Source: a virus. From it: a stretch of DNA of 36,946 nucleotides. Below are positions 1,529 to 36,946 of this stretch, in pieces; position 1 is the stretch's first letter, and every line of letters begins with the position of its first letter. Made by a program: the position numbers and the translations under genes. The notes under the pieces are model-generated. The model saw nothing but the letters and a program-made list of their open reading frames with translations. It did not search any database and had not been told where the DNA came from. The DNA lies in the IMG/VR virus record IMGVR_UViG_3300045988_047290, positions 1 to 36,946 of that record. One strand, given 5' to 3'.

Positions 1529-1566
1529 AAGGGGTTAATGTATAAAAACGTTAACCCCTTTTTGTG
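1529..1566 (+). terminator. Rho-independent terminator-like hairpin at the end of the early arc
   Basis: AAGGGGTTAA (1529-1538), a 12-nt loop, then TTAACCCCTT (1551-1560) followed by TTTGTG. A second 7-bp hairpin GTGTTAA/TTAACAC lies at 1564-1582. Confidence 0.7.
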
Positions 1567-1707
1567 TTAACGTTTTTAACACACTTCGCAAAAAACTTTG
1601 TGAGAGAAAACTTTTTATAGAGAAAACTTGATTTTAACGGTATTTTAACTAAAAAGCCTGTTTTTGACAAAAAAGTAGCCAAAATCATCTTTTACCCTGT
1701 CATTTCA

Positions 1708-1720
1708 TCGTTGACACCCG
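1708..1720 (+). promoter_or_regulatory. TCGTTGACACCCG site, left arm of a 13-bp inverted repeat
   Basis: Its exact reverse complement is at 2028-2040. Confidence 0.6.
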
Positions 1721-1761
1721 ACCGGGCTCACAGGACGCAGAACGCACTTTTCAAGTTTTTG

Positions 1762-1856
1762 ATGTGAATGATTAAAATTTGTATCTTTTACACCTAATTC
1801 GCTTATTTATAGTACTTTATAATGTAATATAGTGTATTTGTCATAGATAGAAAGAT
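1762..1856 (+). repeat. Conserved 95-bp noncoding element, copy 1
   Basis: 88/95 identical, ungapped, to 21848-21942 in the same orientation. The flanks are unrelated. Confidence 0.9.
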
Positions 1857-1978
1857 ATATACTAGTTAGTAACTATTAAAAGAAGAATATATAGTTAACT
1901 ATATTATACTATTGTTATTAAAGTATAATGAATTTATGGTATTTTTTAAATATATTCTATAGGGAAACTATGTTTTTA

Positions 1979-1996
1979 TCGTTGACATCGTTGACA
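1979..1996 (+). promoter_or_regulatory. Two tandem TCGTTGACA sites
   Basis: TCGTTGACA at 1979-1987 and 1988-1996, read directly. Confidence 0.6.
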
Positions 1997-2027
1997 TCGG
2001 GCTGAAACGCCCTGTTCATCGGGGTTT

Positions 2028-2040
2028 CGGGTGTCAACGA
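2028..2040 (-). promoter_or_regulatory. TCGTTGACACCCG site, right (inverted) arm
   Basis: CGGGTGTCAACGA is the reverse complement of 1708-1720. Confidence 0.6.
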
Positions 2041-2084
2041 CAGTTTTGGTAGGTGGAAAGATGCCGATTTGGGCGAAAAAAGCG

Positions 2085-2092
2085 TATTTTTG
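2085..2092 (+). promoter_or_regulatory. Candidate late promoter -7 box TATTTTTG (no well-spaced -33 TTTG)
   Basis: Matches the Bacteroidota TAnnTTTG -7 consensus and lies 23 nt upstream of the terS ATG at 2115. The nearest TTTG (2068-2071) is only 13 nt upstream. Confidence 0.4.
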
Positions 2093-16596: not shown

Positions 16597-17133
16597 ATGG
16601 CTTGTATAAAGACATTAAATAAAGCAATTACCTACGACTGCCAACCCGGTAGCGTAGGTATCGCTGAAATGTATCTGATTAACTTTGACGACGTAACCGC
16701 CACAACAGTAGAGGGGGTTAATCACATAATGGCTATAACGCTAAGACCGGGCGCAAAAACCGTTCCGGTTGAATGCTATAAGAATGGCGCGAAGTTGACG
16801 GAAGCGTTGAAGTTATCAGATGTTTCGGCAGGATTGGATCAGTCTGTTATGTTCACAGTGTATAATAAATCCGTTCCAGATGCTAACACTATTTTAGCGG
16901 CATTACTATTGGGGCGTTTCATGGCAGCGATCAAATTGAACGATATTAACTCAACGCCGATAATGGCGGGGTATAAATGTGGGCTTGAGATTTCACAAGC
17001 TGATACGGACTCTAGTGCGGCAGGTGGTTTTACTACAATAACGATTAAAACGCCGGACGATGCTAGAGGAGAAAATAGAACAACAATTGCTTCGGCAGCG
17101 TGGACAACGATCAAAGCCGCAAAACTTGTATAA
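16597..17133 (+). CDS. Structural paralog 1 of 3 (candidate major tail/tube protein)
   Basis: 178 aa. MACIKTLNKAITYDC...GGFTTITIKTPDD is shared with the next two genes. Confidence 0.6.
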   Translation: MACIKTLNKAITYDCQPGSVGIAEMYLINFDDVTATTVEGVNHIMAITLRPGAKTVPVECYKNGAKLTEALKLSDVSAGLDQSVMFTVYNKSVPDANTILAALLLGRFMAAIKLNDINSTPIMAGYKCGLEISQADTDSSAAGGFTTITIKTPDDARGENRTTIASAAWTTIKAAKLV

Positions 17134-17134
17134 T

Positions 17135-17668
17135 ATGGGATGTTTAAGTAAATTAAATAAAGCGATCTTAGTTGATTGCGATGGAGGGGCAACAGGCGTA
17201 GCCGAGATGCTTCTTATCAACATGGCGGATATTGCTACGAAGAGCGTAGCGGATGGCATTGCCACTATAACGCTAGCCGCTGACGCTAAGGCCGTGCTGG
17301 TTGAAAGTAACAAGAAGGGCGTAAACGCTACGGAGGAAATAAAGCAGAACGATAACGCGCCAACGGCGTTAACACAGGCGGTTACGTTCACGCTGTATGC
17401 AAAGCATGTAGGTGGAACGTGGATAGTAAATCAAATTCTGAACGGGTCATTTTTGGCGCTTGTAAATTATAAGACCAGGGAAAAACGCGTATTCGGGTAT
17501 AATTACGGAATGGTTCTTTCCTCACTAAGTGAGGACGCAAACGCAAACGGTGGTTTTACTACTATCACGCTATCAACACCGGAAAACGTTATAGGGGAGA
17601 TGAGATTGACTTTTAATGGGGCGAGCTACGACAGTCTAAGAGCCGCGGCGATCGTAACAGAATCATAA
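17135..17668 (+). CDS. Structural paralog 2 of 3
   Basis: The in-frame ATG at 17135 lies 1 nt after the paralog 1 stop, and the ORF-track start at 17060 overlaps paralog 1. MGCLSKLNKAILVDC...GGFTTITLSTPEN. Confidence 0.6.
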   Translation: MGCLSKLNKAILVDCDGGATGVAEMLLINMADIATKSVADGIATITLAADAKAVLVESNKKGVNATEEIKQNDNAPTALTQAVTFTLYAKHVGGTWIVNQILNGSFLALVNYKTREKRVFGYNYGMVLSSLSEDANANGGFTTITLSTPENVIGEMRLTFNGASYDSLRAAAIVTES

Positions 17669-17681
17669 TGGAGGATATTAT

Positions 17682-18221
17682 ATGGCATGTTTAAAAAAAC
17701 TAGATCAGGATATAGCGTATGATTGCGCTAATTTTACGCTGACTGGCGGAACGGGCGAAATAGATGAGGCAATCGTTATCAATTCATCTGACATCTCCAC
17801 TATATCAGAAACAGGAGGGGTGGGGACAATCACGATGATAACCGGGAAAAAGGGATACGTGGTTAACTCTGTTAACAATTCCGTGATGTATCAGGAGGCA
17901 ATTAAAGCAAACGATATAGTACCCGCAGCAGAGGATCAGAGCGTCGTTATTAAGGTTATGTCGTCTGCTGATAGCACGGCTTATCGTTTGGCATTAACGA
18001 GCCTTCTAAAGGGTAATTTCCGGGTGGCGTTGAAGTCTAAATCAGGTAACTATTATTTGGCAGGCGCATTTTGCGGCTTGGAAGCTTCGGACTTTGCAAC
18101 CGATTCTAGCAACGGTGGTATATCAACCATCACACTTAAAACACCGGAAGCGTCAACGGGTGATATGTTGGTAACGCTCACCAAAGCGGCGTACGACGGT
18201 CTAAAGATACCGAAAGTTTAA
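17682..18221 (+). CDS. Structural paralog 3 of 3
   Basis: 179 aa. MACLKKLDQDIAYDC...GGISTITLKTPEA. Confidence 0.6.
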   Translation: MACLKKLDQDIAYDCANFTLTGGTGEIDEAIVINSSDISTISETGGVGTITMITGKKGYVVNSVNNSVMYQEAIKANDIVPAAEDQSVVIKVMSSADSTAYRLALTSLLKGNFRVALKSKSGNYYLAGAFCGLEASDFATDSSNGGISTITLKTPEASTGDMLVTLTKAAYDGLKIPKV

Positions 18222-21763: not shown

Positions 21764-21765
21764 CG

Positions 21766-21777
21766 CTTTCCATCTTT
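21766..21777 (+). repeat. 12-bp inverted repeat, left arm CTTTCCATCTTT
   Basis: Its exact reverse complement is at 21929-21940. Confidence 0.7.
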
Positions 21778-21813
21778 CACAAACGCCTTTTCATCTTTTA
21801 CACTTGAAAACTT

Positions 21814-21846
21814 AAAACGCTGATTCGTAACGAGTTGGCGTTTTTG
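21814..21846 (+). terminator. Terminator-like hairpin at the end of the late arc
   Basis: AAAACGC (21814-21820) pairs with GCGTTTT (21838-21844). An inner TCGT/ACGA pairing is also possible, and a T run follows. Confidence 0.5.
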
Positions 21847-21847
21847 C

Positions 21848-21942
21848 ATGTAAATGATTAAAATTTGTATCTTTTACACTTAACTAGCTTATTTATAGTA
21901 CTTTATACTGTAATATAGTGTATTTGTCAAAGATGGAAAGAT
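21848..21942 (+). repeat. Conserved 95-bp noncoding element, copy 2
   Basis: 88/95 identical to 1762-1856. Confidence 0.9.
21929..21940 (-). repeat. 12-bp inverted repeat, right arm AAAGATGGAAAG
   Basis: Reverse complement of 21766-21777. Confidence 0.7.
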
Positions 21943-22223
21943 GATATATAGAGATAAGAATGAAATAGTAATATAATATATAAAATATGTAAATATATGA
22001 ATTAATATGTGAATGAATTTATAGAAATATTTAAATATAAACTATATAGAAAACTATCATACATCTTAGACACTTCACCTGTTTTTGCCACATAACTAGC
22101 TGATACGCACGCAGTTAAGGCATGAAAGATACGTTGAAAAAGGGCTATTCTTCATTGACACCGTTATCAAACCTACAAAACCGTTAATCAGAGTTAAATT
22201 ACTAAAGTTTTTTGGGAGATAGT

Positions 22224-22253
22224 TTTGTAGTTCGAAATAAAGCTGTACCTTTG
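22224..22253 (+). promoter_or_regulatory. Early promoter P-E1 (Bacteroidota type)
   Basis: TTTG at 22224-22227, an 18-nt spacer, then TACCTTTG at 22246-22253. The upstream 14-mer ACTAAAGTTTTTTG is shared with the promoter at 29814. Confidence 0.7.
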
Positions 22254-22329
22254 TCATATCGAAATGAGAAACCAACTAAATTTGTTGAACTATTCCGATA
22301 CCGGAGAATCGTTTTAAACATTACTAGAT

Positions 22330-22659
22330 ATGGCAGCAATAGACATTTATAAGTTAGAAGCGTTCTTTTATAAGATTATACGGGAGAGGATTACGGCGTG
22401 CAAAACGATAGGCGAGGCTACAATGCTATACGGCTATCCGGGCAACTCGAAAATGGTGTTCGATGATTTGCAACGAGAAGAAGAGGCTGGAAAAAAGTTT
22501 AAGTATAAAATCCGGGGCTTTATAATTCCACATGCCAAACGTTACGAAACTATTTTCGAGCAGGCCCGGCGCGCCGCGTACTCCGATCACGTACAAACTT
22601 ATCGAACGTCTGACAAATTGAATTTTAAATTTAACGAAAAGATGAAATGGAAAAAGTAG
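22330..22659 (+). CDS. Hypothetical early protein, 109 aa (first gene after P-E1)
   Basis: ORF track. No motif recognised. Confidence 0.6.
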   Translation: MAAIDIYKLEAFFYKIIRERITACKTIGEATMLYGYPGNSKMVFDDLQREEEAGKKFKYKIRGFIIPHAKRYETIFEQARRAAYSDHVQTYRTSDKLNFKFNEKMKWKK

Positions 22660-22826
22660 AACTTATCACAGTGGCGGAAGCCGCCAGGTTAGCGGAGTGC
22701 ACCGAAAACGCCGTACGCTACCAACTCAACGCCGGAAAGCTCACACGGTACGAGAATGGGACTGGAAAAATCAGAGTGAACAAAAATGAACTATTAGAAA
22801 CAATTTTTAATTTTAAGAAGATATGA
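22647..22826 (+). CDS. HTH DNA-binding protein, excisionase/MerR-like, 59 aa
   Basis: Hand-translated as MEKVELITVAEAARLAECTENAVRYQLNAGKLTRYENGTGKIRVNKNELLETIFNFKKI*. It overlaps both neighbours and was below the ORF-track cut-off. Confidence 0.6.
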   Translation: MEKVELITVAEAARLAECTENAVRYQLNAGKLTRYENGTGKIRVNKNELLETIFNFKKI

Positions 22827-23341
22827 AAGTAGTAATTGAATTAACTGGAAATGAGAGTGTGAAGGAATTGTTAGCGGCATCTAACTATTTACGTGAATTG
22901 GCTGGCGGAACTGCTCCGGATGTGGTAGAGAAAAAAACTGATCTTGACAAGTTAGCAGACGAAGTTGTAGAAGCAACGAAGGTGAAGGGCGAAGAAGCAC
23001 CTAAAACGGTGTCCGAGATCGTAGAATCAGAACGTGCAAAGACCCGTGCTAAACGTGCCGCGAAGCCTGCACCAGTTGAAGAGCCCGCACCAGTTGAAGA
23101 GCCCGCACCAGTTGAAGAGCCCGCACCAGTTGAAGAGCCCGCACCAGTTGAAGAAGCGCCTAGACGTGATGTCATAAAATATTCGATCGACGATTGTAAA
23201 GCTTGGGCTATGAAGGCGCTAAACGCGAAGAAACGCCCAATTGTACAGGAAGCATTTGAACATGTAGGCGCATCCAGTTTCCCAACACTTAAACCGGAGA
23301 TGTATTTTGATTTTGTTGATTACATAGCAAGCCGTCTATAA
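22823..23341 (+). CDS. Hypothetical early protein with a (PAPVEE)5 linker
   Basis: 172 aa. It contains the 18-bp tandem repeat at 23069-23158. Confidence 0.6.
   Translation: MKVVIELTGNESVKELLAASNYLRELAGGTAPDVVEKKTDLDKLADEVVEATKVKGEEAPKTVSEIVESERAKTRAKRAAKPAPVEEPAPVEEPAPVEEPAPVEEPAPVEEAPRRDVIKYSIDDCKAWAMKALNAKKRPIVQEAFEHVGASSFPTLKPEMYFDFVDYIASRL
23069..23158 (+). repeat. 18-bp tandem repeat GCACCAGTTGAAGAGCCC, four perfect units plus one 16/18 unit
   Basis: Units at 23069, 23087, 23105, 23123 and 23141, read directly. In frame they encode PAPVEE. Confidence 0.95.
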
Positions 23342-27307: not shown

Positions 27308-29698
27308 ATGGAAAAATACACCTTATCGCTTGCAGGTTCTTCGGCTTCATTGAAGTGGAAAGCCGTACGTATGACTTGGGAAGCATTTTTGGAAAGACTG
27401 GGAACGCCCGTTATCACTAACGAAACGGTACGCGAGTTCGATAGACTGGACAAGCCCGCTAAATCGTCCTTGAAGGACGTTGGCGGATTCATGGCGGGCG
27501 AGCTTTCCGGCGCGCAACGCCTTAAGAAAGCGGTTATGTCCCGATCTATGATTACATTAGACGTAGACTTTGGGGACGATCTATTCCCGTTCGATTTTGC
27601 GGATCGCTTTCCGGGCGTATCCGCTGCTATCTACACCACTAGATCAGACCGTCCCGGATCACGCCGTTATCGTCTTATTATGCCGTTTAAGGAAGAGGTT
27701 ACAGACGTTACGATGTACGAGGCAGCGGCACGTAAAGTAGCCGAGTTGTTAGGCATCGATCTATTTGATAAAACAACGTTTCAGCCGGAACGTATGATGT
27801 ACTGGCAATCTCTTTCCAAAGACCAAACCGGACTATTCGAAGTATTTGAAGGTGAGCCGATCAGCGCGGGGTATCTCTTAGGTTTGTACGGAGACAACGA
27901 AGAATGGCGCGACGTGCGCAAATGGGCGTTCCACTCTGAAACGGAACGCGATACCCGTTCTATCATTAGTAAGGAGATGGCGAAAGACCCGCGCGATAAG
28001 GAGGGCTTGGTAGGTGCTTTTTGCCGCTCGTACACCATCCCGGAAGCCATAGAGAAATACTTGTCAGACGTTTACACAGAGGTAGACAACGGACGCTATA
28101 CATACGCACTTGGATCAGGCGCTGCCGGCCTAGTTGTGTATGACGACGTGCTTTGCTTTTCCCACCACTCAACCGACCCTATCGGAGACGGACACGCATA
28201 CAACGCCTATGATTTGGTACGGGTGCACAAGTTCGGGCACCTAGGTAAGGAAGACAGTACCCGCGAGATGAACAAGCTAATTTGCGCTGATAAAGAGTGC
28301 GTTAAGGATATGGTAGCCGTGGACGATGATCTAGCCGACTTTGAGGAGTACACAGACGATGTTAAGAGCGACGCGCAGACCGCCGAGGAACTGGTCTGGG
28401 ACTTGGACAGAAAGGGCGATAAAATGTGTACCGTTCGAAACTTCGTTAATGCTTTCAAATGCGATCCGCTATTGAATGATCTACTAGCTTATGACTTGTT
28501 TCTTGATACGATTGTGTACACCCGTACGCCGTTCTTCTCGAAAGACATCAAGAAGGGTGATATGCTGGACGATACCGCCGTAGCGATTATCCGCGGACGT
28601 ATAGAGGATTTGCACGGTATTTATAATGACAGCAAATTAAACGACGCGATGGAAAAGGTTTGCAGCGAAAATGCTTTCCATCCTATCAAGAAGTACCTGG
28701 AGGCGCAAAGATGGGACGGCGTGAAACGTATTGATAATTTCCTAGTTGATTATATGGGAGCAGAGCCTAGCATCTATGTGTCCGAGGCGTTCCGCAAAAT
28801 GTTAGTTGCCGCCGTTACTAGAATTTATGAGCCAGGCCGCAAATTTGATACGGCGCTTGTTATGTATTCAGGACAGGGTGCGGGAAAGTCCACGCTTATA
28901 CAGGCGCTTTCAAAAGGTTGGTTCAACGACTCATTAACGGACGTGTCCGGGCAAAAGGCATACGAGGCGATACAACACGCCTGGATAGTGGAGCTAGCCG
29001 AGTTGTCAGCCCTTCGCCGTTCGGACGTGGAAGCCACGAAGAACTTCATAAGCAAGCGTGAAGATACATATCGTAGTGCATACGCCCGCCGAGTAAAAAC
29101 ACACAGACGGCAATGCGTATTTTTCGGGTCTACAAACGACGATGAGTTTTTGAAGGACAAGACCGGAAACCGCCGTTTCTTCCCGATCAAGGTATGCGTT
29201 AATAAGAACACGCACAAGCTGTTTGAAAAGTCTTTCGAGGCAGTGGTAGACCTACTTTGGGCCGAGGCTATGGAGTTGTACATGTTGGGTGAAAGCCTTG
29301 TTTTGTCTGACGAAGCCGAAGCGATCGCAAACGAAGGCCGCGAGGAATTTACAGAAGAAAGCCCGCTAGTAGGTATTATAGAAAACTATGTAGATAAGCT
29401 TTTCCCGGCTGACTATGAAGACCGCACAGAACAACAACGCGCCGACTTCCTGGCCGGATCGCTGGAAGAGGTTGGGACTGTTCAAAAAAACGAGTTCTGT
29501 TTAATGGAGCTTTGGGTGGATGCATTGGGTCGCCGGAAAGAAGATTATACAAGCGCGAAGGGCCGCGAACTGGCAACAGCTATGAGACAGTTAGGAGGAT
29601 GGTATAAAGGAAAGTTAAAAAGAACCAAATTATACGGCCGACAAGTAGTTTATATCCGTAAAGGTAGCGAGGAAAGCAAAAAATTACTATCTTTGTGA
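27308..29698 (+). CDS. Primase-helicase (N-terminal prim-pol-like domain plus VirE/D5-type NTPase)
   Basis: 796 aa. ITLDVDFGDD in the N-terminal domain, Walker A YSGQGAGKST, VFFGSTND and TGNRRFFPI. Confidence 0.8.
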   Translation: MEKYTLSLAGSSASLKWKAVRMTWEAFLERLGTPVITNETVREFDRLDKPAKSSLKDVGGFMAGELSGAQRLKKAVMSRSMITLDVDFGDDLFPFDFADRFPGVSAAIYTTRSDRPGSRRYRLIMPFKEEVTDVTMYEAAARKVAELLGIDLFDKTTFQPERMMYWQSLSKDQTGLFEVFEGEPISAGYLLGLYGDNEEWRDVRKWAFHSETERDTRSIISKEMAKDPRDKEGLVGAFCRSYTIPEAIEKYLSDVYTEVDNGRYTYALGSGAAGLVVYDDVLCFSHHSTDPIGDGHAYNAYDLVRVHKFGHLGKEDSTREMNKLICADKECVKDMVAVDDDLADFEEYTDDVKSDAQTAEELVWDLDRKGDKMCTVRNFVNAFKCDPLLNDLLAYDLFLDTIVYTRTPFFSKDIKKGDMLDDTAVAIIRGRIEDLHGIYNDSKLNDAMEKVCSENAFHPIKKYLEAQRWDGVKRIDNFLVDYMGAEPSIYVSEAFRKMLVAAVTRIYEPGRKFDTALVMYSGQGAGKSTLIQALSKGWFNDSLTDVSGQKAYEAIQHAWIVELAELSALRRSDVEATKNFISKREDTYRSAYARRVKTHRRQCVFFGSTNDDEFLKDKTGNRRFFPIKVCVNKNTHKLFEKSFEAVVDLLWAEAMELYMLGESLVLSDEAEAIANEGREEFTEESPLVGIIENYVDKLFPADYEDRTEQQRADFLAGSLEEVGTVQKNEFCLMELWVDALGRRKEDYTSAKGRELATAMRQLGGWYKGKLKRTKLYGRQVVYIRKGSEESKKLLSL

Positions 29699-29769
29699 TA
29701 CCGAATTAAAACAATACTTTCTTTTCTAATTTTTAAGGTTAATACTTTTAGGGTGGTTTTTTCAGTTAA

Positions 29770-29806
29770 AAAGTCTTTCGTAGTGATACGCGAGACTTTA
29801 TTTTTG
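29770..29806 (+). terminator. Terminator-like hairpin after the primase-helicase gene
   Basis: AAAGTCT (29770-29776) pairs with AGACTTT (29793-29799), followed by ATTTTTG. Confidence 0.45.
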
Positions 29807-29835
29807 TTAATATACTAAAGTTTTTTGAGAAAAGA

Positions 29836-29866
29836 TTTGCAGGTATCAAAATAAACCGTACCTTTG
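29836..29866 (+). promoter_or_regulatory. Early promoter P-E2 (Bacteroidota type), paralogous to P-E1
   Basis: TTTG at 29836-29839, a 19-nt spacer, then TACCTTTG at 29859-29866. The 14-mer ACTAAAGTTTTTTG at 29814-29827 is identical to 22201-22214. Confidence 0.7.
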
Positions 29867-29898
29867 CTTTCACAATAACCAATTAAAATATTACAATC

Positions 29899-36796: not shown

Positions 36797-36909
36797 AAAT
36801 TTTAAAAAGTATTATTGGTTGGTGGAAAGCGTCTAACCGCTGGAAGCATTTTTTTTTTTCGCGATCCCGCTCGGTGCGGTGTGCGGCGCCCCGTTCACCA
36901 CGGGCATAG
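36793..36909 (+). CDS. Small membrane protein, N-terminal part (0-frame product 38 aa). It joins the 32..217 ORF only after a -1 shift, or one extra T, in the T11 run at 36849-36859
   Basis: The ATG at 36793 overlaps the preceding stop (ATGA). It reads MKILKSIIGWWKASNRWKH, then Phe codons in the T run. The 0 frame then gives an Arg/Ser/Pro-rich tail and TAG at 36907-36909. Confidence 0.5.
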   Translation: MKILKSIIGWWKASNRWKHFFFSRSRSVRCAAPRSPRA

Positions 36910-36946
36910 GTTTGGGTATGGAGATAAAGGATCATTTGTACGGAGG
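36848..36946. repeat. Terminal direct repeat, copy 2 (identical to 1..99); a circular-assembly overlap or a true DTR
   Basis: Exact match to 1..99. Genes read through the junction. Confidence 0.97.

Follow-up and report, generated by a model that had tools for sequence, protein, structure and literature searches.

The two long intergenic gaps of a Bacteroides siphovirus genome each hold a composite element of about 360-400 bp, and we consider it probable that these elements are two replication origins of the type known from Staphylococcus aureus pathogenicity islands (SaPIs) and phage P4, read by the phage's own primase-helicase. The genome is record IMGVR_UViG_3300045988_047290, a stretch of 36,946 nt that was analyzed as a whole, that we call the window, and to which coordinates refer. 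An earlier note on this DNA had described a 95-mer that occurs once in each gap, and listed five possible functions for it: a shared operator, an antitermination site, a small RNA, a pair of replication origins, or a recombination site. Architecture, covariation and homology favor the pair of origins; the evidence speaks against the small RNA, and against an operator for the two proteins that the note had named. The 95-mer is indeed conserved in both gaps, but the functional unit is larger: the 95-mer is the left iteron arm of the composite element, and the A+T-rich tract that follows it is the core.

The window belongs to a group of ~36-38-kb Bacteroides siphoviruses. Its first 99 nt recur exactly at its end (1-99 = 36848-36946); this direct repeat at the termini stems from the assembly, in which the ends of a circular or circularly permuted genome overlap, and is not a terminal repeat of the phage DNA itself; the true genome is therefore 36,847 bp long. 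Given that length, the earlier arithmetic by which recombination between the repeat copies would yield circles of 20,086 and 16,761 bp is correct. All plausible genes lie on the + strand, overall G+C is 46.6%, and the sole gaps of more than 300 nt are, as had been claimed, 1524-2114 (gap 1, before the small terminase gene terS) and 21764-22329 (gap 2, before the early operon).

Recomputing the ungapped alignment of 1762-1856 with 21848-21942 gave the same 88 identities in 95 positions, with mismatches at 1766, 1794, 1798, 1800, 1822, 1844 and 1849 (G/A, C/T, T/C, C/A, A/C, T/A, A/G), while the best 95-nt match between the gaps in 300 local-composition shuffles averaged 49.7 identities and was at most 56. 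The very low G+C counts reported downstream of each copy were also reproduced, and the terminators that had been placed ahead of the copies lie roughly where they were said to (Table 1). The statement that the flanks do not align stands only in part. The repeat itself extends to 92 of 101 identical positions (1756-1856 vs 21842-21942), a second block is 80% identical at an offset of 20,085 (1927-1967 vs 22012-22052), and short sites upstream are common to both gaps; self-BLAST joins the two blocks into one 217-nt alignment (1755-1971 vs 21840-22057, 79% identity, E=2.7e-40).

Both elements are built from a short oriented site of the form ATC[T/G]TT[T/G/C]AC. Allowing up to two mismatches, CATCTTTKACAC has 15 matches in the genome against 5.4 expected, a count that none of 100 shuffles reached, and 10 of the 15 fall within the 3% of the genome that the two gaps occupy. 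From left to right the layout is the same in both gaps: two direct sites, a direct site in the 95-mer, an inverted tandem pair, the A+T-rich tract (105-145 bp across elements), and further direct sites. Spacing is also alike, with 20-21 nt between the first two sites and then 76 nt to the site in the 95-mer, and the elements so delimited run from about 1686 to 2043 in gap 1 and from about 21771 to 22161 in gap 2. We mapped this layout in both gaps of the window and of three relatives from two other clades, and in all of them found what characterizes a SaPI-type origin: six to twelve short iterons and an A+T-rich center, flanked on either side by two or more of the iterons, oppositely oriented.

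Covariation points to the primase-helicase as the protein that reads these sites. We collected 76 metagenomic loci around the primase-helicase gene, many of which span one or both gaps, and scored site type at the site adjoining the A+T-rich tract in 37 non-duplicate ovatus-type loci. Sites there take either a G:C form (TGTCA..., that is ATCTTTGACA, ATCTTTCC) or an A:T form (TGTAA..., that is ATCTTTTACA, ATCTTTAC). When 760 variable amino-acid columns from 32 phage proteins were scanned for association with site type, the top column was residue 778 of the primase-helicase (p=3.7e-8), ahead of the rest by three orders of magnitude: arginine at this position accompanies G:C sites in 12 loci and A:T sites in one, and alanine, glutamine, valine or serine accompanies A:T sites in 20 loci and G:C sites in none. 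The runner-up, residue 481 (Asp vs others, p=5e-5), is in the same protein at the start of its VapE-like domain; its signal could stem from linkage to residue 778 or from another contact with DNA. All other columns had p>=2e-3, and no column of the HTH_17 protein (22647-22826) or of the protein encoded at 984-1523 was associated with site type.

The pattern extends beyond the scored sites. With sites from both gaps pooled, genomes with Arg at position 778 have 92 G:C and 24 A:T sites, and non-Arg genomes 8 and 107. On a tree made from the rest of the primase-helicase gene, residue 778 changes at least nine times and site type at least eight times, the two tracking each other; the association is therefore not the product of one ancestral split. 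In caccae-type loci Arg or Lys goes with GTCA (TGTCATAGATGTCATAGAT) in 6 of 6 cases, and Pro or Ser with GTAA (TGTAATAGATGTAATAGAT) in 14 of 14. Two lineages fetched later by protein search, with Thr and Ser at position 778, have only TTAC sites, as predicted. The thetaiotaomicron-type clade, with C:G at the equivalent site position, gave no further covariation test because the Lys at its key position is invariant. These patterns suggest that the C-terminal domain of the primase-helicase reads the sites, and that it may do so by a one-residue/one-base-pair rule, under which Arg or Lys goes with G:C sites and any other residue with A:T sites.

The primase-helicase is, by sequence, a homologue of the self-loading SaPI Rep initiator-helicases. 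It contains a Pfam VapE-like domain (E=6e-75), its N-terminus matches PHROG 9765, annotated by family name as ‘DNA primase’ (E=1e-77), and residues 385-711 match PDB 7PDS_A, the SaPI1 Rep1 chain (E=1.8e-72), from an entry described by its source paper as the Rep1-DNA complex of the S. aureus pathogenicity island SaPI1 (PMC9371898). The C-terminal ~100 residues are the most variable part of the protein, and a homologue search with the C-terminal 160 residues returned 9 fragments. Run as a profile against all PDB sequences at E<=10, the C-terminus matched 7PDS alone, and not P4 alpha (1KA8). A structural model of the C-terminal 133 residues has a mean predicted local distance difference test score (pLDDT) of 70, rising to 72-85 in a beta-alpha-alpha-alpha-beta-beta part, and puts residue 778 in the ‘wing’, the loop joining its two final strands; an earlier model from 8 sequences (pLDDT 53) was not used. 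Foldseek again ranks the Rep1 chain of 7PDS first for the model (probability 0.96, E=0.06); many DNA-binding domains of winged-helix type come next, and no match has E<0.001. As modeled, the domain is probably a winged helix, an assignment that is provisional because no structural match is significant.

The paired arrangement is conserved throughout the group. The copy-1 region matches 19 cultured phages of B. ovatus, B. kribbi and B. koreensis at 82-91% identity, at two places in 18 of them and at three in one record. When full genomes were compared with themselves, the repeat pair turned up in the corresponding two gaps of 6 of 6 ovatus-type and 2 of 2 caccae-type genomes and, more weakly, of B. 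thetaiotaomicron phage SJC01; the element is in both gaps of every relative examined. Mean pairwise identity of the 101-mer is 0.90 for copy 1 (25 relatives) and 0.83 for copy 2 (27 relatives), compared with 0.65-0.72 at 4-fold degenerate sites of six conserved genes in the same genomes. This bears out the earlier claim of a selected cis element: by this sequence measure the 101-mer, like most of both gaps, is under selection. The A+T-rich cores are conserved among orthologues as well (0.72-0.80 for copy 1, 0.85-0.87 for copy 2) yet differ between copy 1 and copy 2, a hint that the two copies are not fully equivalent.

Between clades the sites change and the layout does not. The same layout occurs in the same two gaps in caccae-type relatives, with sites ATCnnTGAC, and in the thetaiotaomicron-type phages ARB25 and SJC01, with sites ATCTATCC, an 8-mer found 10 times in the two gaps of SJC01 and twice in the other 36 kb; the primase-helicases of these two clades are 68% and 57% identical, respectively, to that of the window. 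The caccae-type element can barely be aligned with the window element by BLAST, whereas its own two copies are 79-81% identical to each other; the copies in one genome therefore evolve together. In 13 of 14 genomes the two copies, 17-20 kb apart, agree in site type. Constant architecture and copy number with drifting site sequence is the signature of a DNA array that co-evolves with its binding protein. Two distant phage-like contigs, which encode VapE helicases with 36-38% identity to that of the window, each have one array directly after the VapE helicase gene, with inverted short sites around an A+T-rich tract (L089, 10100-10450, sites GTACCA; L090, 12340-12600, sites GGTTTACGG/GTAAACC). 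As a separate observation, some sites in both gaps of ARB25 and SJC01 (L016, L017), of the form CTATCCAC, match the bacterial DnaA box TTATCCACA at 7 of 9 positions, and a role for host DnaA in the thetaiotaomicron-type clade is a possibility.

The right end of the gap 1 element (Table 1) is also structured. The hairpin and inverted site in 1999-2043 can pair together with 1986-1996 into a long stem, and a T run comes after the fold of 1974-2052 (-29.5 kcal/mol, z=-3.65). In the hairpin part, 2000-2027, relatives are 0.94 identical. The outer arms of the fold, which are the right-arm site and the inverted site, co-vary among relatives (CGTTGACA/TGTCAACG, CATCATTAC/GTAATGATG, CTTTTACA/TGTAAAG). 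This hairpin could act as a terminator, extrude as a cruciform or serve priming within the origin; nothing equivalent is present in copy 2, where the fold of 22056-22130 has z=-0.79.

Table 1. Features of the two composite elements, their borders and the candidate initiator gene in the window
Feature	Position	Strand	Basis or detail
Intrinsic terminator, end of the early/replication arc, upstream limit of gap 1	1529..1564	+	13-bp stem, then T run
Two direct iteron-like sites, CATCTTTTACCC (1686-1697) and CATCGTTGACAC (1706-1717)	1686..1717	+	Motif scan, site map; equally spaced pair in gap 2
101-mer copy 1, left arm of element 1 (contains the 95-mer)	1756..1856	+	Alignment, motif scan
Direct site TATCTTTTACAC inside 101-mer copy 1	1782-1793	+	Precedes conserved A+T-rich spacer
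Tandem inverted double site TTGTCATAGATAGAAAGAT	1838-1856		3' end of 95-mer copy 1
A+T-rich core 1, putative DNA-unwinding region	1857..1976	.	20/120 G+C; right part 1927-1967 is the shared block
Tandem direct double site TATCGTTGACATCGTTGACAT, right arm	1977..1997	+	Inverted relative to 1838-1856
Conserved G+C-rich hairpin (1999-2031), then inverted site GGTGTCAACGACAG (2030-2043)	1999..2043	.	
TATTTTTG, Bacteroides-type -7 box (TAnnTTTG)	2085..2092	+	Sequence; 23 nt upstream of terS (start codon 2115)
Two direct sites, CATCTTTCACAA (21771-21782) and CATCTTTTACAC (21792-21803)	21771..21803	+	Motif scan, site map
Late-arc terminator hairpin, within the site array	21814..21846	+	-15.2 kcal/mol, z=-3.64, then TTTTTG
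101-mer copy 2, with direct site (21868-21879) and tandem inverted double site TTGTCAAAGATGGAAAGAT (21924-21942)	21842..21942	+	
A+T-rich core 2	21943..22060	.	16/118 G+C; shared block 22012-22052; three ~10-nt ATATG-type repeats
Right-arm sites of copy 2: CATCTTAGACAC (22062-22073), weaker inverted match (22123-22131), CTTCATTGACAC (22150-22161)	22062..22161	+	
Canonical Bacteroides promoter of the early operon (TTTG, 18 nt, TACCTTTG)	22224..22253	+	Downstream of and outside the element
VapE-like primase-helicase, 796 amino acids, candidate initiator; predicted site reader ~residues 700-796 (C-terminal)	27308..29698	+	
Codon 778, CGA (Arg)	29639-29641		

We suggest the following mechanism, by analogy with SaPIs: hexamers of the primase-helicase would assemble on the two inverted arms through their C-terminal domain, the A+T-rich core would melt, and the primase-helicase would load itself and prime synthesis. 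Homology and architecture together place the likely start of replication at the elements, and both copies may fire, rather than one being an auxiliary like the crr of P4. For the primase-helicase as the presumed binding partner, covariation is strong but indirect support.

Several points weigh against this interpretation. GC skew is positive throughout the genome and carries no origin signal; there are two elements, and neither adjoins the helicase gene, unlike SaPI origins; binding and initiation are both predictions from sequence; and the structural matches of the C-terminal domain, with a best Foldseek E of 0.06, lack significance. The specificity rule is also imperfect: Arg genomes keep ~20% A:T sites and two loci (L020, L082) break it in one copy, so residue 778 is not the whole specificity determinant. 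Most of the test loci come from one metagenome (3300045988) and are related, so that the Fisher p-values overstate their independence. Finally, what the covariation shows is a functional coupling of protein and site, the outcome of which may be replication or, for example, transcriptional control.

A possible but unlikely variant would join the two outcomes, the arrays forming a two-site system that couples replication to gene expression: one copy would fire and the other would act in cis as crr does, or loading would switch promoters. Bacteroides promoters have the motif TTTG (-33) and TAnnTTTG (-7). In the promoter-switch version, loading of the primase-helicase at the arc borders would turn the early promoter off and the late promoter, which has no well-spaced -33, on, and late transcription would then depend on origin firing. 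We think it rather improbable that the arrays serve transcriptional control, as operators or enhancers by which a phage protein closes the early promoter in gap 2 and opens the late promoter in gap 1, or insulates the arcs; the protein could even be the primase-helicase itself acting as a regulator. Each element does have a terminator on one side and the next promoter on the other, promoters that depend on an activator typically have, like the late one, a -7 box but no -33 at the proper spacing, and the covariation speaks of coupling to the primase-helicase, not of the effect of binding. However, the innermost right-arm site lies ~90 nt from the -7 box in one gap and ~175 nt in the other, early and late genes alike are preceded by this element, inverted tandem sites around a 120-nt tract of 14-17% G+C are the architecture of an origin, and the coupled protein is a helicase-initiator homologue. 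The column scan speaks against other regulators: neither the HTH_17 protein nor the 984-1523 protein, which has no Pfam or PHROG match, nor other small early proteins are associated with site type, as the primase-helicase is. An operator for the first two, as the earlier note had it, was thus rejected, as was the small terminase (TerS) as binder.

TerS would also be the reader if the elements were pac recognition regions, which we regard as very improbable. Copy 1 lies directly upstream of terS (2115-2804), the classical location of pac, the N-terminal ~50 residues of TerS cannot be aligned between clades, and the related ARB25-like phages are thought to package by a headful mechanism (10.1101/2020.03.04.977157). 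Yet every relative has a second full copy 20 kb away by the early genes, the best TerS column in the scan reached only p=0.02, and the array of the distant relatives adjoins the helicase gene, not terS. We give as little weight to a recombination feature, whether a small mobile element that ends in inverted repeats or a sequence retained at boundaries because it promotes module exchange or gene conversion. The A+T-rich core lies between 18-19-bp inverted repeats, the center of the 95-mer occurs as discrete variants shuffled among copies and genomes, and relatives' assemblies break at the repeat, all as this explanation would have it; but positions that are fixed over three clades, with proteins down to 57% identity, are ill-fitting for a mobile element, no transposase or site-specific recombinase was detected among the window proteins scanned, and the coupling to residue 778 is left unexplained. 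Recombination between the copies may nonetheless contribute to their similarity. A template/variable pair of a diversity-generating retroelement, in which mismatches would sit at adenines of a single copy, one copy would lie in a gene and a reverse transcriptase would be close by, was rejected as well: the mismatches show no preference for adenine, and neither copy is in a gene.

A small or structured RNA, or an antitermination site, is the explanation we find hardest to credit. Conserved non-coding sequence after terminators would suit it, and the strong hairpin at 1974-2052 with its T run could end a short transcript, but the 101-mer folds no better than shuffles on either strand (z 0.0 to -0.81), its center varies as block ‘alleles’ and not as compensatory pairs, and it has no promoter of its own: as the earlier note had observed for the 95-mer, there is no TAnnTTTG in 1756-1856 or 21842-21942. 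Rfam searches gave no match at gathering thresholds in the whole window, and none at E<=1 in the two gaps save a chance small nucleolar RNA match (E=0.92), and no transfer RNA or transfer-messenger RNA was found in the window.

From its motif and position the box before terS is likely the late promoter; the nearest TTTG (2068-2071) is 13 nt upstream of it, compared with 18 nt at the early promoter. The early promoter is 0.94 identical among relatives and recurs at 29836-29866. Each belongs to a 61-nt repeat (22193-22253 vs 29806-29866, 70% identical), found before the early operon and after the primase-helicase gene and holding the canonical promoter (TTTG, 18-19 nt, TACCTTTG); the two are probably early and middle promoters. 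A scan for the sigma-70 consensus, which is uninformative for Bacteroides, gave only A+T-driven matches. Between the early promoter and the first early gene, some relatives have a ~130-nt insertion in gap 2 that holds a small annotated open reading frame (ORF) and is absent from the window (L010 36431-36601, L013 20672-20857, and L014).

Other observations concern contig ends and coding repeats. A 35-kb relative, contig 3300045988_051890 (L005 end, L037 start), has both of its ends inside 95-mer copy 2, and one end runs into Illumina adapter (AGATCGGAAGAGCACACGTCTGAACTCCAGTCAC...); either the assembly broke at the repeat or, possibly, the DNA has a physical end there, and contigs L002 and L072 likewise end at the element. 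Within the window, six tandem 18-nt units (AGCCCGCACCAGTTGAAG) at 23046-23172, four of them near-perfect, encode a Pro/Glu-rich repeat in ORF 22823-23341, the protein of which varies in length among relatives. Three tandem paralogous genes of ~178 codons lie by the major capsid gene (16597-17133, 17135-17668, 17682-18221), and GenBank labels their relatives inconsistently as ‘holin’ or ‘head-tail adaptor.’

The phages concerned include ARB25 and SJC01, standard models of phage-Bacteroides interaction in the human gut, together with phages of B. ovatus and B. caccae. None of eleven GenBank records examined has an annotated replication origin, the ARB25/SJC01 genome paper does not mention an origin or the element, and we found no paper on the phages recorded from B. 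ovatus, B. kribbi or B. koreensis. The present analysis supplies coordinates of two candidate origins per genome and a named candidate binding protein; the coordinates would be useful for replicating vectors or engineered phages for Bacteroides, and the one-residue/one-base-pair rule can be tested by mutant swap. It would also extend the self-loading helicase origin of SaPIs and P4 to virulent Bacteroidota phages, with a conserved two-copy arrangement. More generally, metagenomic diversity alone can pair an initiator with its sites.

The closest known counterparts are the SaPI origins. SaPI Reps are SF3 self-loading helicases and initiators whose C-terminal winged helix recognizes the iterons, and SaPI origins have an A+T-rich center with at least two iterons per side in opposite directions (PMC9371898). 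The window shares with them a homologous initiator (the 7PDS match above), short iterons, the A+T-rich center with at least two oppositely directed iterons on each side, and specificity in the C-terminal domain, which is published for SaPIs and suggested here by covariation. The number and placement of the origins differ: SaPIs have one, directly after rep, whereas the window has two, at the borders of its gene arcs. One lies 5 kb upstream of the helicase gene and the other 8.7 kb downstream, and no sites occur in 29699-29898, directly after that gene; SaPI-like adjacency is seen instead in the distant VapE loci L089 and L090. A SaPI is moreover a satellite island, and the carrier here a virulent Bacteroides siphovirus; sites are 9-10 nt long in the window and 5-6 nt in SaPIs, with an A+T-rich tract of 105-145 nt in the window.

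Phage P4 offers a second parallel. Its alpha protein unites a primase, an SF3 helicase and, at the C-terminus, a DNA-binding domain of the winged-helix type within a single polypeptide (PMC2777425). The window protein has the same parts, its DNA-binding domain being a predicted one, although the C-terminal domain has no sequence similarity to the alpha winged helix at E<=10. P4 also has two separated cis arrays, ori and crr, as the window has two, 20,086 bp apart. Alpha reportedly binds the same iterons at ori and crr, which are said to lie several kb apart and both to be needed. The crr of P4 is a pair of 120-bp repeats, not a second complete origin; both window copies, in contrast, carry the full layout of arms and core.

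In its genome plan the window resembles phage SPP1, which is said to have two origins, oriL and oriR: SPP1, too, is reportedly a virulent siphovirus with two distant initiator-binding arrays, each by an A+T-rich region. Its initiator G38P, however, is described as a protein apart that binds the origin and brings in a helicase loader and a helicase of the DnaB type, and so differs from a self-loading SF3 primase-helicase. Iteron plasmids and lambda-type origins likewise have repeated initiator sites adjoining an A+T-rich unwinding element, but these are usually direct repeats on one side, with loading of host DnaB. The window element instead has inverted tandem pairs on both sides of its core, as expected for the head-to-head loading of two hexamers.

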